This document shows positions 15,001 to 18,000 of a DNA stretch of 55,200 nucleotides, in pieces (within the stretch, counting starts at the first letter, position 1; each line of letters begins with the position of its first letter). Location of the stretch: the IMG/VR virus record IMGVR_UViG_2923302340_000007; one strand, 5' to 3'. Position numbers: made by a program. The stretch comes from a virus. Taxonomy: Duplodnaviria; Heunggongvirae; Uroviricota; Caudoviricetes.

Positions 15001-18000
15001 GAAGAGATGCCTGTATACACGCGCTGGGTAAAAACGCAGAAATGCATGACGTGCGCTAATCAGGCAGATGATCCGCATCACATCATTGGTCATGGACTGT
15101 GAGGGATGGGAACAAAGGCTGATGATTTGTTTGTTATTCCGCTGTGCCGTAAATGCCATAGCGAACTACACGCCGGGGTAAAAGATTTTGAAGAAAAACA
15201 CGGCAGCCAGCTGTTGTTGCTGATTCGTTTTTTAATGCACGCGAGAAATTCGGGTGTCCTGAAGTGGAAAGCATGAATGACTGAACGCATAGAATTTGTT
15301 TTGCCTTACCCGCCAACGGTGAACACTTACTGGCGACGTCGTGGCAGCACATATTTTGTATCAAAAGCCGGTGAGCGTTATCGCCGTGATGTGGCGCTTA
15401 TTGTTCGCCAGCAGCGGCTGAAATTAAACCTGTCCGGAAGGCTGGCGATAAAGATTATTGCAGAGCCACCGGATAAACGTCGTCGTGACCTGGACAATAT
15501 CCTGAAAGCACCACTGGATGCGCTGACGCATGCCGGACTTCTCATAGACGACGAGCAGTTTGATGAAATCAATATTGTGCGCGGTCAGCGCGTTCCTGGG
15601 GGGCGGCTGGGCGTGAAGATTTACAAAATTGAGAGTGAGTGATCGTAAATATGATATACCCGGAAATTACAGGCAAAAGCGGCGAGCATTTACGTCTAAA
15701 AACGCTGGAAGCCGTCTGGATCCAGGGGAAATTACGGATGTGGGGGCGTTGGTCGTATATAGGTGGTGGCAAACCAGGAAATATGTTCAATCAGTTGCTG
15801 GCATCCAAAAAACTGACAAAAACCGCAATCAATGAAGCCCTGCGTAGAATCAGGGAGTCAGGGATTGATAAACCAGAGCTGGAAGCATTCTTGCGAGAGA
15901 TGAGCGCTGGCAGACAGAAGAGCTGGTTGTCTCACTGTACTGATGCAGAGGCGTTACGCATTGATGGGGTGATAAGTAAAGCGCTTGCACGTTATCCTGG
16001 ATTGATTGATATCCTGCGGCAAAGGTACGAAGGGCGGGGGATGAGTAAACGCAAAATGGCTGAATTGTTGAATGAGGTGCACCCGGAATGGTGTTTTAGT
16101 ACATGCGAAAAGCGAATTGCTAATTGGTTGGCTGTTGCTGAATATGCGCTATACATCCCTATGCGAGAATCGTTTGCTCAAAAAATGTCTTGATTTTTTA
16201 CGCATAAACTGTTTCAATCCAGCTACGCTTCGCAAAGCTATACCGCGAGGCGAATAGCAGACATGGACACCTGAAAGAACCCGCTTTATGCGGGTTTTTT
16301 TGTGCCCGAAAAGCGGTACAGGACGTTAAATGCGCTGGTGGTTGCGAATGCCGGTCTTTCAGCTTGCTGGCTTTTTCGACAAGAGGTATTGGTATGTCAC
16401 GTTAACCGGAAAAGGGAAAAAGGCATGCTAAAACAGCAGGATATGACCGAAACCGCCAGAGTGGTGTTTAATGAATTAAGCGTCACCGAACCGGCGACCG
16501 TTGGGGAAATTGCGCAGAATACTTACCTTTCACGCGAACGCTGCCAGTTAATACTGACTCAGCTTGTTATGGCGGGTCTGGCAGATTATCAGTTCGGTTG
16601 TTACAGACGCCTTCCGCAGTGAAGGCTTTTTAATTTGTGGTAATGGGCGGCTGGTGGGTGTTAGCGGCACCTGCCAGCCATCTGCTCATGCGTTGGGGTC
16701 ACAAGCAAACCTCAGGCCCATCTGCTTTGCGCAAAAGCGGTATGAGCCTATCAGAGAAGTGCTTATTGATCTATGATTAATACTGTAAAAATATCCAGCT
16801 GTGAGTTGATCAACGCTGATTGCCTGGAATTTATCCAGACCTTACCGGAAAACTCTGTCGATCTGATAGTCACAGACCCGCCATACTTTAAAGTGAAGCC
16901 CGAGGGCTGGGATAACCAGTGGGAGGGCGACGATGATTACCTGAAATGGCTGGACCAGTGTCTGGCGCAGTTCTGGCGGGTACTGAAGCCTGCCGGAAGT
17001 CTTTACCTGTTCTGTGGTCATCGCCTGGCATCTGACACCGAAATCATGATGCGTGAGCGCTTTAATGTGCTGAACCACATTATCTGGGCGAAGCCGTCCG
17101 GACGCTGGAACGGGTGCAATAAGGAAAGTCTGCGGGCGTATTTTCCGGCAACAGAGCGCATTCTGTTTGCAGAACATTATCAGGGACCGTATCGCCCGAA
17201 AGATGATGGCTATGTGGCACAGGGGCGCGAGCTAAAACAGCACGTCATGGCCCCGCTGATTTCTTACTTTCGTGATGCGCGTAAATCACTGGGAATAACG
17301 TCAAAACAGATAGCGGAAGCCACCGGAAAGAAAAACATGGCTTCGCACTGGTTTGGTACCAGTCAGTGGCAGTTACCGAACGAGGGTGATTACAACAAAT
17401 TGCAGGCGTTGTTTGCGCGTGTTGCGGCAGAAAAACATCAGCGCGGGGAACCGGAAAAGCCACACCACCAGCTGGTCAGCACATACAGTGAGCTGAACCG
17501 GCAGTATACGGAACTGCTGAGTGAATATAAAAATTTGCGGCGGTATTTCGGTGTGACGGCGCAGGTTCCGTACACCGATGTCTGGACGCATAAACCGGTG
17601 CAGTACTATCCAGGGAAACATCCGTGCGAAAAACCGGCAGAAATGCTGCAGCAGATAATCAACGCGAGCAGTCGTCCGGGAGACCTGGTTGCAGATTTTT
17701 TTATGGGTTCAGGTTCAACGGTAAAAGCGGCGATGGCACTGGGGCGTTGTGCGATTGGTGTTGAGCTGGAGACAGGACGTTTTGAACAGACAGTCAGGGA
17801 AGTTCAGGATTTAATCGTTTGAAACGGATGAGATTGCAGAATTAATTACGCACCATTATTATTCTGCTCCCGGCCCTTTAGCTCAGTGGTGAGAGCGAGC
17901 GACTCATAATCGCCAGGTCGCTGGTTCAAATCCAGCAAGGGCCACCATCACATACCGCCATTAGCTCATCGGCAGAGAGCGTCAGCTTTCGAAACTGGCT

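Follow-up and report, generated by a model that had tools for sequence, protein, structure and literature searches.

The ydfU gene (DUF968 family) of a defective lambdoid CDT-I prophage is interrupted by an in-frame opal codon, which is very probably a recent loss-of-function nonsense mutation (G294*) private to a single strain. The prophage fills the stretch of 55,200 nucleotides that was analyzed (IMG/VR record IMGVR_UViG_2923302340_000007; hereafter the window), with an integrase at the left end, which in the relative JP538 adjoins tRNA-Ser and mtfA, and an intact cdtA-cdtB-cdtC operon at the right end (51271-53479; cdtA 273 aa, cdtB 273 aa, cdtC 190 aa), whose best matches are annotated as type I and next to which lies zinT (54550-55200). 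A G-to-T change at 15100 turned the invariant Gly294 codon GGA into TGA in a delayed-early gene of the nin region, directly upstream of rusA and a Q-like antiterminator. The product of this gene is predicted to end in a zinc-stabilized His-Me finger (HNH) nuclease domain; translation would now terminate in the GG turn of that domain, cutting the first strand, with the catalytic His pair and the first CxxC, from the second strand and the helix. As the prophage would already have been unable to make particles, ydfU may have been free of selection, allowing the lesion to persist.

The ORF map confirms the original prediction of a frame running from 14221 through an in-frame TGA and on for another 57 codons: the 351-codon DUF968/YdfU frame (14221-15276) opens with a GTG, the same start as is annotated in homologs, has 293 sense codons before the premature TGA and 57 further ones after it (15103-15273), and closes with a TGA at 15274-15276 (Table 1). 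Translated across the premature stop, it reads ...CANQADDPHHIIGHGL*GMGTKADDLFVIPLCRKCHSELH...KWKA. The upstream piece matches the Pfam DUF968 profile (PF06147) over profile positions 1-118 (E=1.4e-37, 129.8 bits) and the downstream piece over positions 122-169 (E=8.3e-17, 62.2 bits), while bridging the stop yields a single match over positions 1-169 (E=1.9e-61, 207.5 bits), with HNHc_6 also appearing; both pieces and the joined sequence exceed the gathering cut-off of the family (27.8 bits). Since the pieces match consecutive parts of the same profile, they are one gene cut by a stop and not a chance juxtaposition of two ORFs, and, with homologs running continuously through the site, the earlier contention that the gene was once continuous holds. 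By its profile matches the locus belongs to DUF968, of which, with its frame broken by the TGA at codon 294, it is a pseudogene member. Like its counterparts in lambdoid prophages, it immediately precedes rusA and the late-gene antiterminator. Gene callers report 15106..15276 as a small separate DUF968 gene.

Table 1. Features of the interrupted ydfU locus and of the IS3-family insertion in the DUF977 gene, by position in the window.
Feature	Position	Strand	Basis or remark
IS3-family rve ORF	10005-10838	-	IS element in DUF977 gene
IS3-family HTH_Tnp_1 ORF	10869-11279	-	IS element in DUF977 gene
N-terminal 293 codons of ydfU-like DUF968 gene	14221..15099	+	GTG start; only part that would be translated
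Premature opal stop TGA, from GGA (Gly294) by G15100T	15100..15102	+	Homolog codon comparison
57 codons, now untranslated, plus original stop	15103..15276	+	Encode second half of the predicted His-Me finger
56-codon ORF opening at Met296, 3 nt past the stop	15106..15276	+	ORF map
rusA (Holliday-junction resolvase), intact	15277..15642	+	ORF map and synteny

The premature stop falls inside the Cys/His motif. C275xxC278 (15043-15054) and H286-H287 (15076-15081), which constitute the first half of the His-Me finger, precede the TGA, and C309xxC312-H313 (15145-15159) and H317 (15169-15171) follow it. The original prediction had placed the stop just before this motif; the stop instead splits it. 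The order and spacing of these elements (CxxC...HH...GG turn...CxxCH...H) are those of group 7 of the His-Me finger superfamily, to which both DUF968/YdfU and DUF1364/YbcO (PDB 3g27) have been assigned, with rusA and Q given as typical neighbors of DUF968/YdfU and a NinG-like role in recombination or repair hypothesized for it (PMC5714182). Curtis et al. described the DUF968 proteins as combining an Orf-like N-terminal domain with a zinc-finger HNH C-terminal extension (PMC4118853). In our searches, PHROG 96 ('HNH endonuclease') matched the repaired YdfU protein end to end (E=3e-163), and a profile built from nine diverse C-terminal domains recovered YbcO (3g27; E=0.003) across exactly the region that contains the stop and, weakly, the canonical HNH of McrA (6ghc; E=0.3). 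G294 is aligned with the leading glycine of the conserved 'GG' turn, which in the McrA HNH lies between the first and second strands. The 3g27 match and the published group assignment (PMC5714182) point to a beta-beta-alpha metal fold for the C-terminus of YdfU. The 293-aa product lacks the second CxxC, the second strand, and the helix that bears the metal-binding His, and is therefore predicted, from the motif, to be incapable of forming the nuclease active site or a full zinc site. No biochemical data for YdfU were found in the literature searched. An N-terminal segment, 'GDYHH...CWHCDNQL' (HH101, C118xxC121), appears HNH-like by eye and was considered as an internal duplication of the finger, a candidate that we discarded because BLASTP of the segments gave no alignment.

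Among known systems, the closest are YdfU of Qin, a cryptic prophage of E. coli K-12, and the genes named 'ydfU' in PPompW/Stx2a phages (PF06147), which belong to the same family, span 351 codons, and share the gene order hokD-rem-orf92-ydfU-rusA-Q. At the DNA level, the window gene is 94.8% identical to the PPompW ydfU and 99.1% to the best E. coli copies; the Qin and PPompW/Stx2a copies are intact, whereas that of the window has the opal stop at codon 294. YbcO of prophage DLP12 (DUF1364, group 7), which likewise sits just upstream of rusA (PMC5714182), shares with the window protein the core H-x-GL-x-G-x-GTK...C-x-x-CH-x-E; however, it is a 96-aa stand-alone finger with a Cys at the equivalent of G294, and the window protein has about 260 additional N-terminal residues. 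The NinG/Rap protein of lambda and other recombination nucleases of the nin region occupy an analogous slot before Q, and a NinG/Rap-like role on branched or recombination DNA may be presumed for YdfU, following the hypothesis of earlier studies (PMC5714182; PMC4118853), although NinG/Rap belongs to a different Pfam family (PF05766) and no sequence match between it and the window ydfU was seen.

Homologs agree on glycine at the interrupted position. In the four that were compared, namely the two closest copies (99.1% identical), that of strain A20, and that of phage Stx2_14040, the codon at the stop site is GGA. TGG, TGC/TGT, or CGA had been suggested as the ancestral codon; the alignment instead gives GGA, and the change reads as a G15100T transversion from GGA (Gly294) to opal TGA. 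For a broader survey, a wobble-degenerate DNA pattern with NNN at codon 294 was used, and it recovered 125 true DUF968 contexts, from IMG/VR, E. coli, Shigella, and Serratia. Within its reach, which is limited by the fixed flanking residues to homologs retaining HGL-x-GMGTK, all 125 encode Gly (111 GGA, 10 GGC, 3 GGT, and 1 GGG), a result that extends to relatives with only about 50% identity in the domain. As all four Gly codons are used, it is the residue and not the nucleotide that is conserved. Most matches of this pattern in the genome_contigs set were chance hits in unrelated bacteria and were set aside, those in E. coli, Shigella, and Serratia being real.

The gene is common and the TGA allele is not. 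Of 5,426 complete E. coli genomes searched by megablast, 4,543 contain ydfU and 1,823 of these match it over its full length; its cluster at 90% identity has 5,135 members (most of the 15 listed are of 351-352 aa). Relatives are annotated as a single 'DUF968 domain-containing protein' or, in PPompW/Stx2a phages, as 'ydfU', and RefSeq and GenBank homologs as one CDS of 351-352 aa. The frame is a single intact ORF in 81 of 83 full-length copies, and all 10 ydfU neighbors of rusA that were compared are likewise intact (351-375 aa). To score the allele itself, we designed a 33-nt probe so that any 28-mer megablast seed would include the mutant T, with an otherwise identical probe bearing G as the control; it replaced an 81-nt probe that could not separate a perfect GGA match from TGA plus one mismatch. 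None of the 5,426 complete E. coli genomes matched the TGA probe; the GGA control was found in 1,268 records from 1,263 of them. The degenerate pattern with TGA likewise had no match in 185,579 species-representative genomes and none in IMG/VR, and a T at the equivalent of 15100 is absent from all 83 full-length homologous copies. Against those 83 copies, the window has just three private bases in the 1,056 nt of the gene, namely one synonymous change, D245E, and G294*; it follows that the gene has hardly drifted since its inactivation and, given the absence of the allele elsewhere, that the mutation is private and recent. The repaired protein, with Gly294 and either E245 or D245, was not found in a collection of 15 billion proteins, so that the immediate ancestral allele was not recovered.

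Whether the stop is a property of the genome or of its deposited sequence is addressed by an independent k-mer assembly of the raw run ERR769152. The exact sequence of the 56-aa ORF beyond the stop led to the Logan contig ERR769152_237 (3,125 nt), which matches window positions 14823-17947 at 100% identity, TGA included. This match makes a consensus or assembler error at 15100 unlikely. A protein identical to the 293-aa truncated product is recorded for a single NCBI contig (5,071,057 bp), which is presumably the source chromosome; other exact-product look-ups for the truncated YdfU returned no record. ERR769152 may itself be the data behind the source genome, so both records could share one DNA preparation, in which case an artefact of the library or a mutation acquired in the sequenced culture could still account for the T. 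We consider it improbable that the true genome has GGA and that the deposited sequence is wrong in showing T at 15100. The uniqueness of the TGA allele among thousands of genomes and the likewise private TAG of the portal gene (see below) would fit such an error, and the tail genes of the window hold a dense cluster of about 18 unusual single-base indels, many of them outside homopolymers, which could reflect poor consensus patches and raise some doubt on local sequence quality. Set against these are the Logan contig, the rarity of substitution errors in finished consensus sequence, and an early region around ydfU that has no frameshift or other premature stop relative to the closest relative.

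The remaining alternatives accept the TGA and give it, or the pieces on either side of it, a function. In E. coli, UGA leaks more than any other stop codon, and the 57 codons beyond the premature one are still undamaged, so one could envisage programmed recoding, with the TGA read through by near-cognate tRNA-Trp, by a suppressor tRNA, or as selenocysteine to give a regulated, low level of full-length nuclease. The undamaged state of those codons is explained by the recency of the mutation (three private changes in the gene), and the features of programmed UGA recoding are lacking: the UGA is not conserved, with no homolog having TGA here and Gly encoded in every context surveyed; there is no stable 3' RNA element, the 64 nt from the stop folding at -10.2 kcal/mol (z=+1.13, with 172 of 200 shuffles folding as well) and showing neither a relevant Rfam match nor a SECIS-like element; and the tRNAs of the window have the anticodons CAT and TCT only, with no suppressor tRNA within it. 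Moreover, Trp or Sec would replace the invariant Gly of the turn. Recoding is on these grounds hardly credible, and the read-through alternative of the original prediction is not sustained. An ATG lying 3 nt past the stop, a complete 56-aa ORF, and separate calls of the 56-aa product in other assemblies might instead suggest a functional split gene, either by reinitiation at ATG 15106, with the 293-aa and 56-aa products reassembling the finger, or with the N-terminal fragment alone retaining a DNA-binding role. Reinitiation there is conceivable in principle and would yield half of a compact metal finger; the stop cuts the beta-beta-alpha unit so as to part the two CxxC zinc-ligand pairs, the other 56-aa calls are mostly contig-edge truncations or different, independent ydfU lesions, and the arrangement is private to one strain, all of which render a functional split very unlikely. 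A two-piece system by reinitiation, or a trickle of full-length enzyme by rare Trp read-through, would allow a domesticated toxin prophage to retain nuclease at a low, non-toxic level, but we regard such an outcome as extremely unlikely. That homologs naturally end at this position, the downstream piece being a separate gene, has nothing in its favor beyond the ORF map and was specifically examined as the observation that would overturn the prediction of a nonsense mutation; the intact copies, intact rusA neighbors, and single-CDS annotations given above refute it, leaving it a practically negligible probability. With these same copies encoding Gly throughout, the nonsense mutation stands as the simplest reading, as originally held.

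Other strains carry ydfU lesions of their own. A copy in GCA_000940115.1 (LM995813.1; 2116-3171) has TGC>TGA at Cys278, which closes the first CxxC and lies 16 codons before the stop of the window; another locus has a deletion that leaves only the last ~82 codons of ydfU, after a cro-like gene; and two further loci have the same 1-nt deletion and meet their first stop near codon 333-337. From these independent events it is apparent that ydfU lesions recur. Separately, several short-read contigs from unrelated assemblies begin within 0-2 nt of the ATG at 15106, probably through a selection effect of the look-up together with boundaries, repeat or mosaic, between lambdoid prophages that share a host.

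As to the immediate downstream consequence of the nonsense mutation, the original stop of ydfU and the start of rusA abut as TGA and ATG (15274-15276 and 15277-15279) with no 4-nt overlap, at variance with the ATGA coupling described initially; the ATG at 15273-15275 lies in a different frame from rusA. With the last 174 nt of ydfU no longer translated, translational coupling from ydfU to rusA is probably lost or weakened.

Elsewhere in the window, inactivating lesions are numerous. Relative to the closest relative, all early and lysis genes are intact except ydfU and the DUF977 gene, the latter being split by an IS3-family element (~9995-11319) into codons 1-115 (9650-9994) and codons 112-138 (11320-11400). 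The portal gene B (24223-25824) has an in-frame TAG at 24955-24957 ('...EPVEDG*TRGAN...'), for which the likely ancestral codon is CAG; among the 5,426 E. coli genomes, none matched a 111-nt probe around it perfectly (best 110/111). The protease/scaffold gene C is split by two 100%-identical, inverted 2,700-nt copies of ISCro1 (IS66 family; 25875-28574 and 29149-31848), and the 574 nt between them (28575-29148) correspond to codons ~22-212 of gene C, inverted. The junctions have the form a-[IS]-rc(b)...rc(a)-[IS]-b, with a=CTTGAAC and b=CTGATTT, and these repeats fit an IS-mediated inversion, by intramolecular replicative transposition or by recombination between two inverted insertions. In the tail genes H, M, L, K, and J (37689-43779), ~18 window-specific single-base indels, many of them outside homopolymers, frameshift all five genes; the head genes (21.5-37.3 kb) and early genes have no such indels, and three intact relatives lack all those from H to K. 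This clustering is odd and could reflect either an older, decayed segment or a locally poor consensus in a multi-copy region. Exact-product look-ups found no record for the truncated portal or for the N-terminal fragments of H and J. The 146-aa fragment of L is on record in 521 blocks; we rejected these as support for the window indels, as the loci examined lack those indels and reach only 89-94% identity to the window. That two nonsense codons in one prophage are noteworthy, as was suggested, is accurate to the extent that the portal TAG is real and also private; however, the two do not form a special pair, because they belong to this broader set of inactivating lesions.

An apparent moron in the nin region (11768-12541, minus strand) encodes an intact 257-aa alpha/beta-hydrolase and is common to strains HCP4S3_I4 and JP538. 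Downstream of the DNA methyltransferase gene lie a tRNA at 17872-17947, called tRNA-Met (CAT) by ARAGORN and having a JP538 homolog annotated as tRNA-Ile in RefSeq, and a tRNA-Arg (TCT) at 18045-18121.

The interrupted ydfU is an ordinary recent pseudogene, already known in kind. Defective (cryptic) lambdoid prophages commonly combine nonsense mutations, IS insertions, inversions, and frameshifts in phage genes with intact cargo, here cdtABC, as does the window; compared with other cryptic-prophage pseudogenes, its allele is private to one strain or lineage and otherwise offers nothing of note. The locus should be labeled as a ydfU/DUF968 pseudogene (G294*) and not as two small genes, and beyond this correction of annotation the finding has little importance, though the private SNP at 15100 could serve as a lineage marker. 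The loss of nuclease function would most plausibly be a neutral, unselected change, and the lesions taken together suggest a CDT-I prophage locked in the chromosome with its toxin operon intact, in the familiar pattern of prophage domestication.
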